Assembly (NCBI GenBank): GCA_963665095.1
Contig: OY762069.1
Span: 4,640,001-4,704,000 of the forward strand
Length of the DNA stretch: 64,000 nt
Origin: an uncultured Desulfobacter sp.
GTDB taxonomy: Bacteria > Desulfobacterota > Desulfobacteria > Desulfobacterales > Desulfobacteraceae
Direction of reading: 5' to 3'
The position numbers were made by a program, and so were the translations under genes. Shown one piece after another: positions 53,896 to 61,067 of this stretch (the first letter of the stretch is position 1; the number at the start of each line of letters is the position of its first letter). The notes beneath the pieces were generated by a model. That model had not been told where the DNA came from. It was given only the letters and a program-made list of their open reading frames with translations, and made no database searches.

Positions 53896-55024
53896 TTTCC
53901 ATCACTTTTGCAAACTGGTTAAAAAGATAGGCCGCATCATGGGGACCCGGGGAGGCTTCAGGGTGGTACTGGACGGCAAAGGCCCGGATAGAGTCATTCT
54001 TCAATCCTTCCAGGGAGTCTTCATTCAGGTTGATGTGGGTCAGATGGCAGTTTTCTTTGCTCAAGGTGTTCAGATCCACGGCAAACCCATGGTTCTGGGA
54101 GGTAATTTCAACCTTTCCGGTATCTAAGTTTTTAACCGGCTGGTTCCCGCCCCGGTGGCCGAATTTAATTTTCATGGTCTTTCCGCCCATGGCCAGACCT
54201 AAAAGCTGCATGCCAAGGCAGATGCCGAAAATGGGAAATTGTCCGAGAAGCTTGCGGATGGTTTCCACGGCGTAACTTAAGGGCTCGGGATCACCAGGAC
54301 CGTTTGACAGAAATACCCCGTCCGGATTTAACTTTTTGATGACTTCGGCATCTGTGTTAGCCGGCACCACCAGCACCTCACAGCCGTTTTTTTCAAGATT
54401 GCGGATAATATTGTATTTAATGCCGAAATCAAGGGCCACCACAGAGTGTTTTTTACCTTTGTGTCGCCAGATAAACGGTTTTTCAAGGCTTTCTATATTC
54501 ACATAATCCGGCTGGTTATATTTCCAGAAATAGGGTTTTTTAGTGGAGACATAGCCCACCAAATCGGAACCTTCCATGGAAGGAAGCTGTCTGGCCCTTT
54601 GCACAAGCGAAGCAGGATCCAGATCCGAGGTGGAGATCATGGCCCGCATGGCGCCATTGTTGCGGATGTGCCGTGTCAACGCCCGGGTGTCCAGGTCTTC
54701 AATACCCAGGACGTGGGATTTTATCAGATAATCGGCAAGGGTGCCTTTGGACCGGAAATTACTCGGAAATTCCTGGTATTCTTTGACAATAAAGGCTGCC
54801 ACATGAACCCGGTCAGATTCAACATCTTCAGGGCAGACCCCGTAATTGCCGATGAGCGGATAGGTCATGGTGACCATCTGGCCGTAATAGGACGGGTCCG
54901 TCAGGATCTCCTGGTATCCGGTCATACTGGTGTTGAACACCACTTCCCCCTGGGCTTCGCCCGGCCCTGTAAAGCTTGTGCAGGGAAATGTCCTGCCGTC
55001 TTCCAGGGCTAGTAATGCTTTCAT
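53882..55024 (-). CDS. carA: Carbamoyl-phosphate synthase small subunit
   Basis: [45 protein letters not shown]. Confidence 0.98.
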
Positions 55025-55309
55025 ATGGATTAATACCTGTCCCTTAAATTTTTATGGTAAAAAAGCGTTGTGCCAAATATTTGGAACCTGTTTAAATATC
55101 ATGAAAATGCCTGGATTATCAAGCCCGCATTACAGGGGAAACAGGGTCTTGGCACGCAAAGATTCTTAACAGTCTTTAAATTCCGCTTTGCTGAAGAAAA
55201 AGAAACAGGGTTGAAAAGCGCGCATCGTTCTTATATGTCTATATATTATTTCATAAAAGTCATGTAGTTCAACCCATAACCGTTCAATTTTCGATATGGA
55301 TTGTCATCA

Positions 55310-57712
55310 ATGAAATCAGCAGCAAAGGTTCTTGTTCAGATTTGTATAGTACTCCTGCTAGGAATCACGCCTGGATATGCCTCCCAGGATAAGGCCCGCG
55401 CCCTCAAGGTTATTTCCGAATTCAGTCATGCCGGGGGCCGCATCGGCACCTATCACGCCCTGCTTGTGGGGATCAATGACTACAAAGACCCGGAAATCCC
55501 TGATCTTGAGACCCCTGTGAGCGACGTCAATGAGATGGCATCCCTGCTGGAGAAAAAGTACGGGTTCCAGGTGAGCCGGCTCATCAACAGCAAGGCCTCA
55601 AAAGATGGTATTTATAATGCTTTAAGACACCTTGTGGGCACGGCAAAAAAAGAAGATTCCGTGCTGATTTATTATGCCGGGCACGGAGGGCACGACAAGC
55701 TTGTCGGCGGGGGATACTGGGTACCCTGGGATGCCAGGCATAGTAATACGGGATCCTATTTTGATAATGTACTGACCCAAAAACTGATTGCCGGCATGAA
55801 GGCCCGGCACGTACTTCTTATTTCCGACTCCTGTTATTCCGGCACCCTGTTCGGCAAGGCAAGGGCCCTTCCCCCGGACATCACGGACAAATACTACCTG
55901 TCGCTTTTCAACGAAAAAAGCCGGTGGGGCATGACCTCGGGCAATTTCACCCCGGTGGCGGACGGCGGTACCGACGGCCACAGCGTATTTGCCTACCAGC
56001 TGATCAAGGCGTTAAGGAAAAACAGCAGCCCCTACCTGTCTACCCAGCAATTGTACACAGGATTTGCCCATATTGTGGCCAACAACTCGGAACAGAGCCC
56101 CATGTGCCGCCCCATAAAAAACACCGGGGACCAGGGCGGTGAATTTATTTTTATCATGGCCGGGGGGCCTGGTCCTGACCCGGCTGCCCCGGCACCCCCG
56201 GCCGGACAGAAACAGGCCTGGCTGTCAGTGGAGGCCAACGTGGCCAATGCCGATGTCCTGGTGGACGGGCAGTCTGTGGGCAAAACACCCTTAAGGGATT
56301 ACGAGCTTGTCCCGGGTGATCACAGGATTACAGTGGTAAGCCGGGGCTACGACAATTATGAAAGAAACTATACCTTTCGTTCCAGCCGGTCCAGGGACGT
56401 CAACGTGGTGCTGGTCAAAGCCTTGCCGGTTAAAGGCAGTCTCGCTGTTGATACCGTGCCCGAGGATGCGGTCGTTAAAATCATGAACATCCGGGAAAAA
56501 TACCAGAGGGGAATAGAACTTGCTCCGGGCAAATACCATGTGCAGGTTCTTGCGCCTGGCTATGATACCCGAGACCTGTGGGCAGAAGTGGGCCGGGGCG
56601 AGGATAAAATCATCACCGTGCATCTGGAAAAGGCGGAAGAAAAACAGCCTGTTCCCCAAAAGCCCACAGCGTCATCCGGCAGTACCGCACCTGCCCAAAA
56701 GCCGGAAACGTCATCCGGCAGTGCCGCACCGTCTTCCGGGTCATTCAGCAGCCAGCTGGACGACCTTGCGGCCAGAAAAGCCAAATGGGAAGCCTGGCAG
56801 TCCCACATGGAAGCGGATTATAATAAACTCAAAGCCCTGGAAAACGACAACACCATCCCGGTAAAGCAGCGCAAACAGTTTTTTAAGGCCTTTTTGTCCA
56901 CCTATGGGGCGGATAATGTTTACAGCAGCCGGGATGAGGCCCTTCGCAAGGCCGCAACCTCGGCTATGGAACTGATGGACATATTGGGCAAGCCGTTTGT
57001 GGAGCCGGTAACCGGCATGGAATTCGTGTGGGTGCCGGGCGGCTGCTATCAGATGGGCGATACCTTCGGGGATGGGGAAGACAATGAAAAGCCGGTGCAT
57101 GAGGTGTGCATAGACGGCTTCTGGATGGGCAAATACGAGGTAACCCAGGCTCAGTACCGGACAGTGACGGGTCAGAACCCGTCCGAATTCAAAGGGGATC
57201 GAAATCCTGTGGAGCAGGTCAGCTGGGATGATGCTAAATCCTTTATATCCAAACTGAACCGTCAGACAGGTAAAACTTTTGCATTACCCACGGAAGCCCA
57301 GTGGGAATATGCCGCCAGAAGCGGAGGAAAGAAAGAGAAATATGCCGGGGGCGGCAATGTGGACCAGGTGGCCTGGTATAAAGGCAACAGTGGAGGGAAA
57401 ACCCATCAGGTCGGCACAAAAATTCCCAATGGCCTGGGCATATATGACATGAGCGGTAATGTCTATGAGTGGTGCGAAGATGTGTATGACCAAGGCGGAT
57501 ATAATAAACATTCAAAGAATAATCCTTTAATTACGTCCGGTTCATCCTACCGCGTGATCCGTGGTGGCAGTTGGGGCAATTACCCTAGGAACGTGCGGGC
57601 GGCCGGCCGGAGCAGGTATTCGGCTGATTTCCGCCTCAGCTTCATGGGGTTCCGCGGCAGCTACGTAGGGTTCCGCCTCTGCCTTGTCCCTGAGTCCGGC
57701 AGGAAACAGTAA
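55310..57712 (+). CDS. Exported caspase-like (peptidase C14) + PEGA + FGE-sulfatase/C-type-lectin-fold protein; probable DGR target
   Basis: Signal peptide; ALLVGINDY, YYAGHG, ISDSCYSG; PEGA-like LSVEANVANADVLVDG..VGKTP; YEVTQAQY, PVEQVSW, LPTEAQWEYAAR, YDMSGNVYEW, RGGSW...GFR. Confidence 0.9.
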   Translation: MKSAAKVLVQICIVLLLGITPGYASQDKARALKVISEFSHAGGRIGTYHALLVGINDYKDPEIPDLETPVSDVNEMASLLEKKYGFQVSRLINSKASKDGIYNALRHLVGTAKKEDSVLIYYAGHGGHDKLVGGGYWVPWDARHSNTGSYFDNVLTQKLIAGMKARHVLLISDSCYSGTLFGKARALPPDITDKYYLSLFNEKSRWGMTSGNFTPVADGGTDGHSVFAYQLIKALRKNSSPYLSTQQLYTGFAHIVANNSEQSPMCRPIKNTGDQGGEFIFIMAGGPGPDPAAPAPPAGQKQAWLSVEANVANADVLVDGQSVGKTPLRDYELVPGDHRITVVSRGYDNYERNYTFRSSRSRDVNVVLVKALPVKGSLAVDTVPEDAVVKIMNIREKYQRGIELAPGKYHVQVLAPGYDTRDLWAEVGRGEDKIITVHLEKAEEKQPVPQKPTASSGSTAPAQKPETSSGSAAPSSGSFSSQLDDLAARKAKWEAWQSHMEADYNKLKALENDNTIPVKQRKQFFKAFLSTYGADNVYSSRDEALRKAATSAMELMDILGKPFVEPVTGMEFVWVPGGCYQMGDTFGDGEDNEKPVHEVCIDGFWMGKYEVTQAQYRTVTGQNPSEFKGDRNPVEQVSWDDAKSFISKLNRQTGKTFALPTEAQWEYAARSGGKKEKYAGGGNVDQVAWYKGNSGGKTHQVGTKIPNGLGIYDMSGNVYEWCEDVYDQGGYNKHSKNNPLITSGSSYRVIRGGSWGNYPRNVRAAGRSRYSADFRLSFMGFRGSYVGFRLCLVPESGRKQ
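57545..57690 (+). other. Putative DGR variable region (VR)
   Basis: N-N-pyrimidine codons at the positions where DGR templates carry AAY (RGGSW-NNN...RNNNIGFR); internal 21-nt duplication. Confidence 0.7.
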
Positions 57713-57726
57713 CAGCCGCGAAGCGA

Positions 57727-57807
57727 CAGGGGCCTATGATCCGGCAGGGGCGCATGGCCACGAAGGCGGCAGCCGTGGCCATGCCGCCTGCCGGATCATA
57801 GGCCCTG
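57727..57807. repeat. Long GC-rich inverted repeat immediately after the VR gene
   Basis: GGGCCTATGATCCGGCAGG/CCTGCCGGATCATAGGCCC (19 bp) plus GCATGGCCACG/CGTGGCCATGC (11 bp), 11-nt loop, no T tail. Confidence 0.85.
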
Positions 57808-57816
57808 GGAGGGTGG

Positions 57817-57897
57817 TGGGGTCACATCTTGATCAGTGATTTAATAACTCTGTTTCATACTCAACCCCGACTAATCACTAATCAAGATGTGACCCCA
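57817..57897. repeat. REP/MITE-like inverted repeat (25-bp arms, one mismatch)
   Basis: TGGGGTCACATCTTGATCAGTGATT ... AATCACTAATCAAGATGTGACCCCA. Confidence 0.8.
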
Positions 57898-58079
57898 GAT
57901 TCCTCGAATGCCTTTTTTCCTTTGATCCTGTATATAGAAAAATCACGGTCAATAGTCGCGACTTCATTTATCCCCATTTTTTCAGCGAGCAGGATAAGGC
58001 ATGAATCTGCAAAATCCATTGGTAGATCTCGATACTTTTTAGTCAACCAATCGGAGGGCAAAATTACGTGTATCCATTG
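57898..58079 (-). pseudogene. C-terminal relic of a VapC/PIN toxin gene
   Basis: Minus frame LTKKYRDLPMDFADSCLILLAEKMGINEVATIDRDFSIYRIKGKKAF; upstream in-frame stop, N-terminal half missing. Confidence 0.75.
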
Positions 58080-58169
58080 GGTTCCCGATTCCTATCAATT
58101 CAAAATTTGATTTTGCCTGCCGGTTCAGGGTAATATTCCGGAGCAAAAAATAATTCGAAAGGCCAAGAC

Positions 58170-61067
58170 ATGACCCAAGACCCTTTAGACCTGTCAATTG
58201 ACCGCTCTTTTACTGACTTAAGCCAGTCACTCAGGCAGACGTTATCCTGTCGTGTTGAAGATTTTTTAAACGCCGCAGGTATAGAAGGCCTCAGCGGACT
58301 GCCGGTAAATTCTGAAGAATTTTTAAAGGTGATGCTGTTCAGCCCTTTTGTTGCCGAGCACATCACTGCCTCCCCGTCAATCGTTGACCGCCTTGGAAAC
58401 AGCGGTGATCTCGAAAAGAGGTACAATCCGGCCACCTTGAAGGATAAACTGGATCTCTTTGCAAAGGAAATCAGGGATATTGCCGGGGTAAAATCGTGTA
58501 TGCTTGAATTCAAAATTTATGAAGTCATACGCATTGCCTGGCGGGATCTCACCGGTGCGGCACCCTTGGCAGAAACCATGGCGGATCTGTCCAATCTGGC
58601 CTGTGCCTGCATAAGCTTTGGATTTCAACGGTTATACCCGGTTCTGACGGAAAAATGGGGAACGCCTTGTGACCATCTGGGAAACGCCCAGAATATTGTG
58701 GTGCTGGGCATGGGAAAACTCGGCGCAGGCGAGCTCAATTTTTCTTCGGACATTGACCTTATTTTTGTTTATCCAAAGGAAGGTCACACCACCGGCGACA
58801 GATCCATATCCAATGATGAGTTCTTCACAAAATTGTGCCGGGAATTTATCAAGCTGTTTTCAACGAGCAACGGGGCCCATTTTTACCGTGTGGATACCCG
58901 CCTGCGACCCTTTGGGGAGAGTGGGCCCCTGGTCATGGATGCGTCGGCCTTTGAGCACTATTACCAGTCCCAGGGCCGGGAGTGGGAGCGATATGCCATG
59001 ATCAAGGCGGCGCCGGTGGCAGGTGACCTGCCCGCCGGCCGGGATATTCTTGACTCCCTGCACCCCTTTGTTTTCCGCAGATATCTGGATTACGGGTCCT
59101 TTGATTCATTCAGGGATATGAAACAGCGTATTGCCCTTCAGGTGAAAAGCGCAAAGCTGAAAAATAATATTAAAATAGGTGCCGGCGGCATCCGGGAGAT
59201 TGAGTTTTTCGGCCAGCTGTTCCAGCTCATCCGGGGCGGGGTGGAACCGGCCCTGCGGGCCAGGCCCGTTCTGACAGTTCTGGATCTGCTGGTGGAAAAG
59301 GGGTGTATCGACGCAAAGGTATGCGAAGAACTTAAACAGGCATATTATTTCCTGCGCCGTGTGGAAAACCGCCTTCAGGAATACCAGGACCGCCAGACCC
59401 ATGACATCCCTGAAGATCCGGTGCAAAGGAAGATCCTTGCTCTGTCCATGGGATATACCAACGAACCGGCATTTTATGCTGAACTTTCCAGGGTTCAGGG
59501 CATTGTACATAAACATTTTTCAAGGCTTCTGGTGGCTCAGGATGAGGAGGAGACGGATAAAAGCGGCCAGGATCTGAAACAAATCTGGACCAGCATTACG
59601 GATCCCCAGTTTCATATTCAGGATATGTCCATTTCCGGGTTTAATGATCCGGACCAGGTGGTGCGCATCCTTAAGACACTTGCCACCCATCCGCACACAC
59701 GCCAGCTCTCCCAGGCCGGCCGCAATAAACTGGCCCGCCTGGTACCCCTTCTGATTAAAAAGGCAGGCCAGCACCCGGATGCCGATGCCGTCATCGCGCG
59801 TCTGTCTGATCTGGTGGCCACCATTGAGCGTCGCACCTGTTATCTTTCTTTACTCATTGAAAACAAAGGGGCGTTGGATACCCTGATTATTCTGGCCCGT
59901 AAAAGTCCCTGGATTATTACCTTTTTAAGTCAGCATCCTGTGCTTTTAGATGAACTTATGCACCCTGCAACACTCTATTCACCTCCCAAGCGGGAGATGC
60001 TTGAAAAGGAGATGGAGACAAGGATGGCCCGGGTATCTGGTGAAGACCTGGAATATCTGCTGGAAGAGCTTAACATCTTCCGTCAGATCAATACCCTTCG
60101 GGTGGCGGCGGCCGATGTATCAGGCAACTATCCGCTGATGAAGGTGAGCGATCATCTCACCTGGATCGCTGAAACAGTTATGGGCCAGATCCTCTCTTCA
60201 TCCTGGCAGATCGTGACCGAAAAATACGGCAGACCCCCGGGTATTGCCGAATCAGGCTTTAAGGGGTGCGGTTTTGCCGCCATCGCCTATGGCAAGGTCG
60301 GGGGCCTGGAGATGGGGTATAAGTCGGATCTCGACCTGGTGTTTCTTTTTGATGCAGAATCCGGGTACACCACCGGGACGGACCGGTCCATTGATACGGC
60401 CAGATTTTATTCCAACCTTGGCCAGCGCATCATCCATGCCCTGACCATGCATACCGCAGCCGGTACACTTTATGGTGCGGACATGCGGCTTCGACCCGGA
60501 GGGGAGTCCGGCACCATTGTGTCCCATATTGAATCCTATGAAGAGTATCTTAAAAACAATGCATGGACCTTTGAGCACCAGGCCCTGATCCGGGCCCGGC
60601 CTGTGGCCGGAGATCCCTTACTGTTCAGGCGGTTTGACACCATCCGTAAAAAAATTCTGACCCTTAAAAGGGATGCGCAGACCTTAAAAACCGAAGTGGG
60701 GGAAATGCGGGAGAAAATGCGGGCTCAGCGGTTAAAGTACGAACCCGGACTATTTAATCTGAAGCAGGGCCGGGGAGGCATTGTGGATATTGAATTTTTT
60801 GTTCAGTATATGGTGCTGCGCCATGCTGCCGACCATCCCGATGTTGTGGAATGGACGGATAATATCCGGCTGCTGGAGGCCTTAAGCGTGGACTCCCTGA
60901 TATCCGGCGAAGACAGCGGTGCACTTCAGAGCGCCTATGTGACCATGAGAAAGGCCATACACCGCCTGACCCTTCAGGAGCTTCCCGCCATTGTGACAGA
61001 AGACCAGTTTCGCGATGCAGCCGCCGATGTGGCCCGGATTTACGATGGGGCATTGGGTTCTGATTAA
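58170..61067 (+). CDS. glnE: Bifunctional glutamine synthetase adenylyltransferase / adenylyl-removing enzyme
   Basis: GMGKLGAGELNFSSDIDL, RVDTRLRPFG, GREWERYAMIK, YGKVGGLEMGYKSDLDL, KQGRGGIVDIEF. Confidence 0.96.
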   Translation: MTQDPLDLSIDRSFTDLSQSLRQTLSCRVEDFLNAAGIEGLSGLPVNSEEFLKVMLFSPFVAEHITASPSIVDRLGNSGDLEKRYNPATLKDKLDLFAKEIRDIAGVKSCMLEFKIYEVIRIAWRDLTGAAPLAETMADLSNLACACISFGFQRLYPVLTEKWGTPCDHLGNAQNIVVLGMGKLGAGELNFSSDIDLIFVYPKEGHTTGDRSISNDEFFTKLCREFIKLFSTSNGAHFYRVDTRLRPFGESGPLVMDASAFEHYYQSQGREWERYAMIKAAPVAGDLPAGRDILDSLHPFVFRRYLDYGSFDSFRDMKQRIALQVKSAKLKNNIKIGAGGIREIEFFGQLFQLIRGGVEPALRARPVLTVLDLLVEKGCIDAKVCEELKQAYYFLRRVENRLQEYQDRQTHDIPEDPVQRKILALSMGYTNEPAFYAELSRVQGIVHKHFSRLLVAQDEEETDKSGQDLKQIWTSITDPQFHIQDMSISGFNDPDQVVRILKTLATHPHTRQLSQAGRNKLARLVPLLIKKAGQHPDADAVIARLSDLVATIERRTCYLSLLIENKGALDTLIILARKSPWIITFLSQHPVLLDELMHPATLYSPPKREMLEKEMETRMARVSGEDLEYLLEELNIFRQINTLRVAAADVSGNYPLMKVSDHLTWIAETVMGQILSSSWQIVTEKYGRPPGIAESGFKGCGFAAIAYGKVGGLEMGYKSDLDLVFLFDAESGYTTGTDRSIDTARFYSNLGQRIIHALTMHTAAGTLYGADMRLRPGGESGTIVSHIESYEEYLKNNAWTFEHQALIRARPVAGDPLLFRRFDTIRKKILTLKRDAQTLKTEVGEMREKMRAQRLKYEPGLFNLKQGRGGIVDIEFFVQYMVLRHAADHPDVVEWTDNIRLLEALSVDSLISGEDSGALQSAYVTMRKAIHRLTLQELPAIVTEDQFRDAAADVARIYDGALGSD

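Follow-up and report, generated by a model that had tools for sequence, protein, structure and literature searches.

The 64,000-nucleotide stretch analysed here (the window) comes from the genome of an uncultured Desulfobacter sp. (contig OY762069.1, positions 4,640,001 to 4,704,000) and contains, alone between carA and glnE, a gene for an 800-residue protein whose C-terminal end is the variable region (VR) of a diversity-generating retroelement (DGR) (Table 1). The protein matches three Pfam families over their cut-offs: Peptidase_C14 at residues 52-269 (PF00656, 71 bits), PEGA at residues 308-373, and the formylglycine-generating enzyme (FGE)-sulfatase family at residues 574-785 (PF03781, 159 bits). 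From the N terminus, it comprises a putative signal peptide (judged likely by eye), a caspase-like C14 domain, a PEGA domain, a Pro/Ala/Ser linker, an unassigned 80-residue segment, and a C-terminal FGE-type C-type-lectin domain; both export and proteolytic activity are predicted. His125 and Cys175 sit in the caspase motifs and are invariant in all four alleles described below, and the caspase domain is nearly invariant, with one change in one of the three other alleles. The lectin domain carries the VR, and the best match in the PDB, its closest solved structure, is the Treponema variable protein TvpA (2y3c, E 3e-29). Catalytic FGEs have two active-site cysteines just after an RGGS motif. In the target protein, none of the 30 residues after RGGS is a cysteine, and this stretch is the VR. 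The gene is, we think, probably an orphaned and now frozen target of an element with an HRDC gene, a reverse transcriptase (RT) gene and a template repeat (TR) in that order, probably last rewritten in trans from another locus before the core of the element was lost.

Table 1 Features of the target locus, with positions in the window.
Feature	Position	Strand	Basis
53-bp piece of dispersed repeat resembling a miniature inverted-repeat transposable element (MITE), directly before the shared upstream region	55152..55204	.	98% identity over part of a repeat; longer copies of that repeat at genome 6447720, 3071965, 374642 and 3224298
Upstream region and gene start common to three other target genes or pieces; likely promoter region, putative	55197..55330	+	77-87% identity to genome 5024466, 3227030 and 1142563
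Target gene (800 aa)	55310..57712	+	Open reading frame 55301/55310-57712, ATG 55310, stop 57712
DGR variable region (VR)	57551..57667	+	Differences from related templates biased to adenines; alleles differ at codons with a template adenine
21-nt tandem duplication, +7 residues	57635..57676 (copies 57635-57655 / 57656-57676)	+	Copies compared with templates and alleles
GC-rich segment common to related VRs and templates; likely initiation of mutagenic homing (IMH) site	57668..57703	+	Alignment with G038, G054 and G140 copies; residues invariant in 4/4 alleles
76-nt GC-rich inverted repeat (hairpin/cruciform) behind stop codon	57730..57805	.	Fold energy and comparison with G038
81-bp inverted-repeat element, in place of the HRDC-RT-TR cassette of G038	57817..57897	.	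96% identical copy at genome 1677096-1677176

The VR can be compared with the TRs of the relatives G038 and G054, which are cousin templates from other species and not the cognate one. Relative to the G054 TR, it differs at 17 of 31 template adenines versus 9 of 83 other positions, all nine of which are third codon positions, and relative to the G038 TR at 15 of 29 adenines versus 11 of 85 other positions. A first-pass annotation, made from the letters of the window, had read a DGR variable region from codons that lie in frame at 57548-57655, at the 3' end of the target open reading frame, and had reconstructed a template by restoring adenines. That template was nearly right, its peptide agreeing with the G054 TR at 33 of 36 residues and with the G038 TR at 31 of 36.

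The 90% protein cluster of the target has four members: the window protein, P0002, P0003, and P0004. In P0003 (97% identical) and P0004 (96%), 14 and 13 of the 38 VR codons are changed, compared with 10 and 17 of the 747 residues outside the VR (Fisher p 4e-14 and 6e-11 for the VR excess). Template-adenine codons take all 14 of the VR changes in P0003 and 11 of the 13 in P0004 (p 7e-8 and 5e-4); one V>I per allele was scored unreachable under a strict mask that omitted an adenine present in one of the two templates. P0002 has three changes, none of them in the VR. Together with the match to related templates, this orthologue alignment, a check that the first-pass annotation had proposed, bears out its reading of the VR.

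By sequence and fold, the VR is followed by an IMH and a GC-rich hairpin, both of putative function. The predicted fold energy of the hairpin is -43.4 kcal/mol (z -9.8), with none of 200 shuffled sequences as good, and 6 of the 19 pairs of its outer stem differ from those in G038, all six of them compensated. We rejected the hairpin as an integron cassette attC: the attC core pattern was not seen by eye, and the hairpin is conserved in front of the HRDC gene in the complete DGR of G038. Target recognition in DGRs is known to involve a hairpin behind the VR, whose stem measures 7-10 bp in phage DGRs (Guo et al, 2011); the stem in the window is far longer. In life, the RT would copy the template RNA while misreading adenines, as is established for DGRs, and the cDNA would then replace the VR from the IMH next to the hairpin. 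One could instead regard the lectin domain as an ordinary FGE-family binding domain, with a C-terminal loop that varies by point mutation and selection and no DGR history; the genome holds neither an RT of the DGR type nor a TR, and FGE domains with no VR-like end exist in it. This explanation appears largely refuted by the sequence comparisons, and we regard it as scarcely credible, given allele changes specific to adenine codons, the near match to real templates, a hairpin shared with a complete DGR through six of six compensated changes, and HRDC remnants behind sister genes.

The 21-nt tandem duplication bears on how the VR was last written. The first-pass annotation had missed it, ending at the first copy, as it had missed the hairpin. 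The two copies differ at five positions, all of which are adenine in the G054 template; the G038 template also has adenine at four of them. Given that 7 of the 21 positions are adenine, five out of five would be expected by chance with a probability of ~0.001. P0003 and P0004, both seven residues shorter, do not contain the duplication, nor does the contig from sequencing run X9, which has 22 gap positions and a depth in the VR bin that corresponds to loss of 21 nt. A slip after the death of the element would give identical copies, and the separately mutated copies therefore place the duplication in, or before, the last active period of the element. It is likely to be a by-product of the retrohoming reaction. 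The RT could have slipped from one CCGC word back to another 21 nt away and so copied the intervening sequence a second time, or integration of the cDNA could have been out of register at the repeated CCGC word, and both routes would yield two separately mutated copies. In-frame VR indels were described in 14 of 372 DGRs and ascribed to template slippage (Wu et al, 2018; PMC5758913). A duplication with separately mutated copies would be a natural record of how retrohoming makes in-frame indels.

Complete elements of this type occur in relatives. Of 161 family genomes searched at the DNA level, 17 gave a match, the window's own genome included. The same-genus genome G038 has, in a row, a PEGA-FGE target, the same hairpin, an HRDC gene, a gene for a 332-residue RT, and the TR. 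G054 has the same cassette with three targets, which differ from its TR at 11-18 adenines and one IMH position, and the HRDC-RT-TR order is found in the complete relatives G038, G054, and G024. The G054-type element is apparently an active caspase-lectin DGR. Its caspase-PEGA-FGE target has three different VRs in three assemblies (L065, L069, and L074), with the template identical where covered. The target in G038 (L045:9060-9185) contains a 1-nt VR insertion that shifts the frame and ends the protein early, a real event or an assembly error, and a second target-type upstream region and a YefM-YoeB pair come after the template. In G024 (C210, L046), a multi-target caspase/FGE DGR locus has one VR that lacks two codons and an RT frame of only 240 residues. 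More VR-like ends that match the templates of other genomes are present in G037 (L116), G022 (L137), and G140 (L118, L141); the VR-like copy of G022 has a stop codon, G140 is only 85% complete, and no related RT was found in G037 or G022 at E<=1e-30.

The first-pass annotation had seen no RT, Avd or TR in the window, which holds and extends to the whole assembly. In the window's own genome, no TR was found by blastn with a word size of 7, by an adenine-tolerant scan (scores of at most 11 in nine windows versus 45 for the VR itself), or by a motif scan, so that the adenine-only copy which the first-pass annotation had suggested seeking by genome-wide short-word BLASTN is not in the assembly. 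The genome has 13 RVT_1 loci, 12 of them with a GTPQG motif, which we take to be typical of group II intron RTs, and the 13th an N-terminal piece. Several of these group-II-intron-type loci are truncated and clustered, for example at 0.92-0.94 Mb and 3.90-3.92 Mb. A profile of 60 DGR RTs detected no DGR-type RT, scoring at most 126 bits in this genome versus 272-505 bits in five family controls. No bAvd was found in the genome, and its only HRDC sequences are 5' remnants at genome positions 5024797 and 3224689. Neither a DGR-class RT nor a TR differing from the VR only at adenines was therefore found in the assembly, and the gene today has no A-to-N match to a TR in the same genome, the definition of a remote target in Wu et al (2018). 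The window gene is a DGR target gene, with a 3' VR that varies at template adenines at the codon level relative to related templates; it is not a functional DGR or a present-day remote target.

Five more caspase/FGE genes or gene pieces are found in the genome, at 5.02, 3.22, 1.14, 3.45, and 6.45 Mb. The locus at 5.02 Mb (5024466-5025700) is a decayed DGR copy with the shared upstream region, a 5' piece of a sister target fused, at a short word common to both, to the 3' arm of the hairpin seen in the window, and a truncated HRDC gene. This HRDC gene (5024797) retains its first 93 codons, 80% identical to those of G038, and is followed by a Phd/YefM-ParE toxin-antitoxin pair; its 97-residue product has no match to the Pfam HRDC family. 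At 3.22 Mb (3224100-3227030), an intact paralogue encodes a 693-residue caspase-PEGA-FGE protein with a VR-like end of another template type, and is followed by its own hairpin, the second cut HRDC gene (3224689), and a repeat element. Its last bases are common to the broken gene at 6.45 Mb, and the caspase/FGE genes at 1.14 and 3.45 Mb are broken as well. The adenine-tolerant scan of the genome found no templates for three paralogue ends. Pieces of one dispersed MITE-like repeat adjoin four of the six target loci (window 55152-55204, and genome 6447381-6447720, 3224018-3224298, and 5024288-5024360), and this repeat may have carried or eroded the cassettes.

Four of 20 listed sequencing runs (X3, X5, X6, and X9) were compared as assembled contigs, a form in which rare variants are lost. 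No RNA run was listed for the locus, which is uninformative about expression. In X3, X5, and X6, the VR of the main contigs is that of the window. The X6 strain has 10+1 substitutions over 55471-57702, none of them in the VR and the single one in 56605-57702 at 56792; two of the 11 match P0002. Because the X6 VR is identical despite these 11 substitutions in the rest of the target, with P0002 in agreement, the VR site is likely frozen. Depth in X3 is flat over the VR, the VR-end bin in X9 is explained by one contig, and no template-like contig is visible in either run at 80% likeness. The contigs of X5 and X6 both end at 57702, possibly at a sequencing-error branch at high depth; a hidden template as the cause of this break was rejected, as divergence towards a template would already occur at the last variable codon.

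Like P0003, the X9 contig has A217S and V334A and lacks R345Q; it is unbroken from 55020 to 57846, with two more contigs continuing towards glnE. Since it spans the VR, the hairpin and part of the inverted-repeat element, the RT-less layout recurs in a strain whose VR is different. A 97-residue truncated HRDC protein that is 97% identical, with the same read-through tail, appears to belong with the P0003 allele type. Among the best 120 of 883 RT protein matches, none could be assigned to the strain of P0003, which does not imply absence, as an RT could sit on another contig. From these comparisons we infer that the orphan layout and the broken core at 5.02 Mb predate the strain split and that the VR was rewritten after it. 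This order of events speaks for rewriting in trans in the past, by a core that was not found. The first-pass annotation had proposed that the gene is diversified in trans. For the past this is likely, given another VR allele in the same RT-less layout in X9; for the present it is not supported, with no cognate TR or DGR RT in the assembly, no TR-like contig over the VR end in X3 or X9, and an unchanged VR in X6.

The same strain differences could arise if the target were still competent and re-diversified at times by a visiting core, a mobile HRDC-RT-TR cassette passing through the population. The intact IMH and hairpin would fit such a core, as would VRs that differ between strains alike in their RT-less layout and, we infer, in their broken HRDC gene, the scatter through the genome of six target genes or pieces, four of them beside pieces of one repeat, and the patchy distribution of related RTs (18 of 161 family genomes, 4 of 24 in the genus). 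We nonetheless consider a visiting core unlikely. No mobile core was found in plasmids, phages or IMG/VR: the G038 cassette had no match in plasmids, the VR none in phages, and the G038 RT none in viral contigs. A strict cognate motif had no exact match in the species genomes, Joint Genome Institute (JGI) metagenomes, or IMG/VR, and a relaxed motif matched only relatives of the G054 element, in collections from which records very near the window's genome may be left out. In X3 and X9, a single contig accounts for the depth at the VR end, and the VR is unchanged across three samples (X3, X5, and X6). If such cores did visit, chromosomal targets would keep their IMH and hairpin long after losing a resident core and be rewritten in bursts, and the species would hold a standing set of exported caspase-lectin sensors with specificity that is reset episodically.

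Recombination offers another route to the observed alleles, which could have been made with a core beside or near the gene in other lineages and then moved between strains as recombined patches, with no rewriting of the orphan in trans. Residues 596-733 take 14 of the 17 outside-VR changes of P0004, residues 728-730 of P0004 resemble the G038 protein, and the carA-glnE interval is a hot spot of variable content. The same residues take 4 of the 10 outside-VR changes of P0003, and residue 691 occurs in three states; this clustering in the lectin domain may reflect recombination or selection near the binding site. P0003, however, is identical to the window protein in residues 700-749, right up to the VR, and again in the IMH, so that any donor would have to match it in both flanks and template, and no such donor was found in the genomes and metagenomes scanned. 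We therefore regard transfer of finished alleles as unlikely.

Several observations weigh against an orphaned target last rewritten in trans. The cognate template was never found, and the two closest templates differ from the VR at 9-12 non-adenine positions. In P0004, W>C and A>V occur at codons with no template adenine and are true exceptions, and P0003 and P0004 are known as proteins only, so that adenine specificity was tested on codons relative to related templates and not on bases. Most of the outside-VR changes of P0004 are clustered in the lectin domain, which points to recombination at the target locus. The assembly is one contig and 97.4% complete, from which plasmids may be missing. 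The X9 locus consists of three contigs at ~6x with small gaps, and at least 560 rows of X9 differences lie outside those listed. If the 5.02-Mb core broke before the strain split, it did not carry out the most recent rewriting, and no other core was found to have left a scar. Structure prediction is uninformative for the VR: AlphaFold, with a 22-row alignment, gave a mean predicted local distance difference test (pLDDT) score of 61 and pLDDT <50 over the VR (167-228 of 243), and the model cannot tell whether the seven residues of the duplication are tolerated.

Every ingredient of an orphaned target of this kind is already in print, namely caspase-FGE targets, HRDC-type Desulfobacter DGRs, remote targets, and leftover targets, and the first-pass suggestion of an undescribed system does not survive comparison with Wu et al (2018; PMC5758913) and Nimkulrat et al (2016; PMC4891356). 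HRDC-type DGRs are architecture C of Wu et al (2018), with a TG-HRDC-RT-TR-TG arrangement and FGE-sulfatase targets in Desulfobacter postgatei, and the same paper lists remote targets and, as category b4, Peptidase_C14 plus FGE-sulfatase targets in Acaryochloris and Pseudanabaena. Like HRDC-type targets, the window target has an FGE-type C-terminal VR, and its relatives G038, G054, and G024 have the HRDC-RT-TR order; unlike them, its own genome has no RT or TR, and HRDC is truncated and far from the target. In Wu et al (2018), the HRDC-type targets are listed as FGE alone or with an unassigned extension, and no GC-rich stem-loop is scored. The window protein shares with the Peptidase_C14-FGE targets a caspase-like domain N-terminal to a variable C-type-lectin domain. 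Those targets are cyanobacterial and mostly predicted to be cytosolic, whereas the window protein is from the Desulfobacteraceae and adds PEGA, which is listed separately among DGR target domains (Roux et al, preprint 10.1101/2020.04.01.020958), and a likely signal peptide. Orthocaspase variable proteins and remnant VRs have also been described, with the suggestion that the machinery is perhaps removed once a variant has been selected (Vallota-Eastman et al, 2020; PMC7517822).

Treponema isolates that lack RT and TR retain VR-bearing targets, which were read as leftovers (Nimkulrat et al, 2016). The Treponema denticola TvpA system resembles the one considered here in its FGE-type variable protein, HRDC accessory gene, and several dispersed targets. 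Its targets are mostly lipoproteins, and a caspase domain is not mentioned in the accessible part of that paper. Unlike the TvpA leftovers, sister strains with different VRs here apparently have the same broken core. In the literature searched, with most subscription journals outside the search, we found neither caspase-PEGA-FGE targets from Desulfobacteraceae nor sister strains combining a common broken core with different VRs. DGR targets can be recognised from the VR alone, and surveys anchored on RTs miss targets such as the VR-like ends in the window's own genome, G037, and G022, genomes in which searches found no related RT. Sister strains that differ in VR but apparently have one broken core in common allow a test of whether an orphan target is dead or awaits a visiting core, a question that bears on the fixation of hypermutated binding proteins after selection.

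Variable C-type-lectin domains have been proposed as sensors coupled to peptidase effectors in antigen-sensor conflict systems, and MITE-like elements erode DGR loci (Dore et al, 2024, PMC10907252; Kaur et al, 2020, PMC7159879). The window locus is similar in combining a variable lectin domain, as a proposed sensor, with a peptidase and in having MITE-like pieces at DGR loci, but no STAND NTPase, MoxR or vWA gene lies beside the target. By analogy with these proposed antigen sensors, we tentatively suggest that the target protein may be an exported sensor-protease, in which the variable lectin tip would bind a ligand, such as the surface of a phage, predator or host, and thereby cluster the caspase or direct it near the cell wall. 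OmpA or peptidoglycan-binding domains were found at related loci. The ESM Atlas returned no usable match for residues 478-562.

The target gene was found at carA-glnE in none of the four relatives compared. Within the genus, the carA-glnE interval (window 55127-58250) is an insertion hot spot that ranges from ~0.5 kb (G031) to ~23 kb (G036 and G037), and in G041 and G045 it is occupied by unrelated genes.

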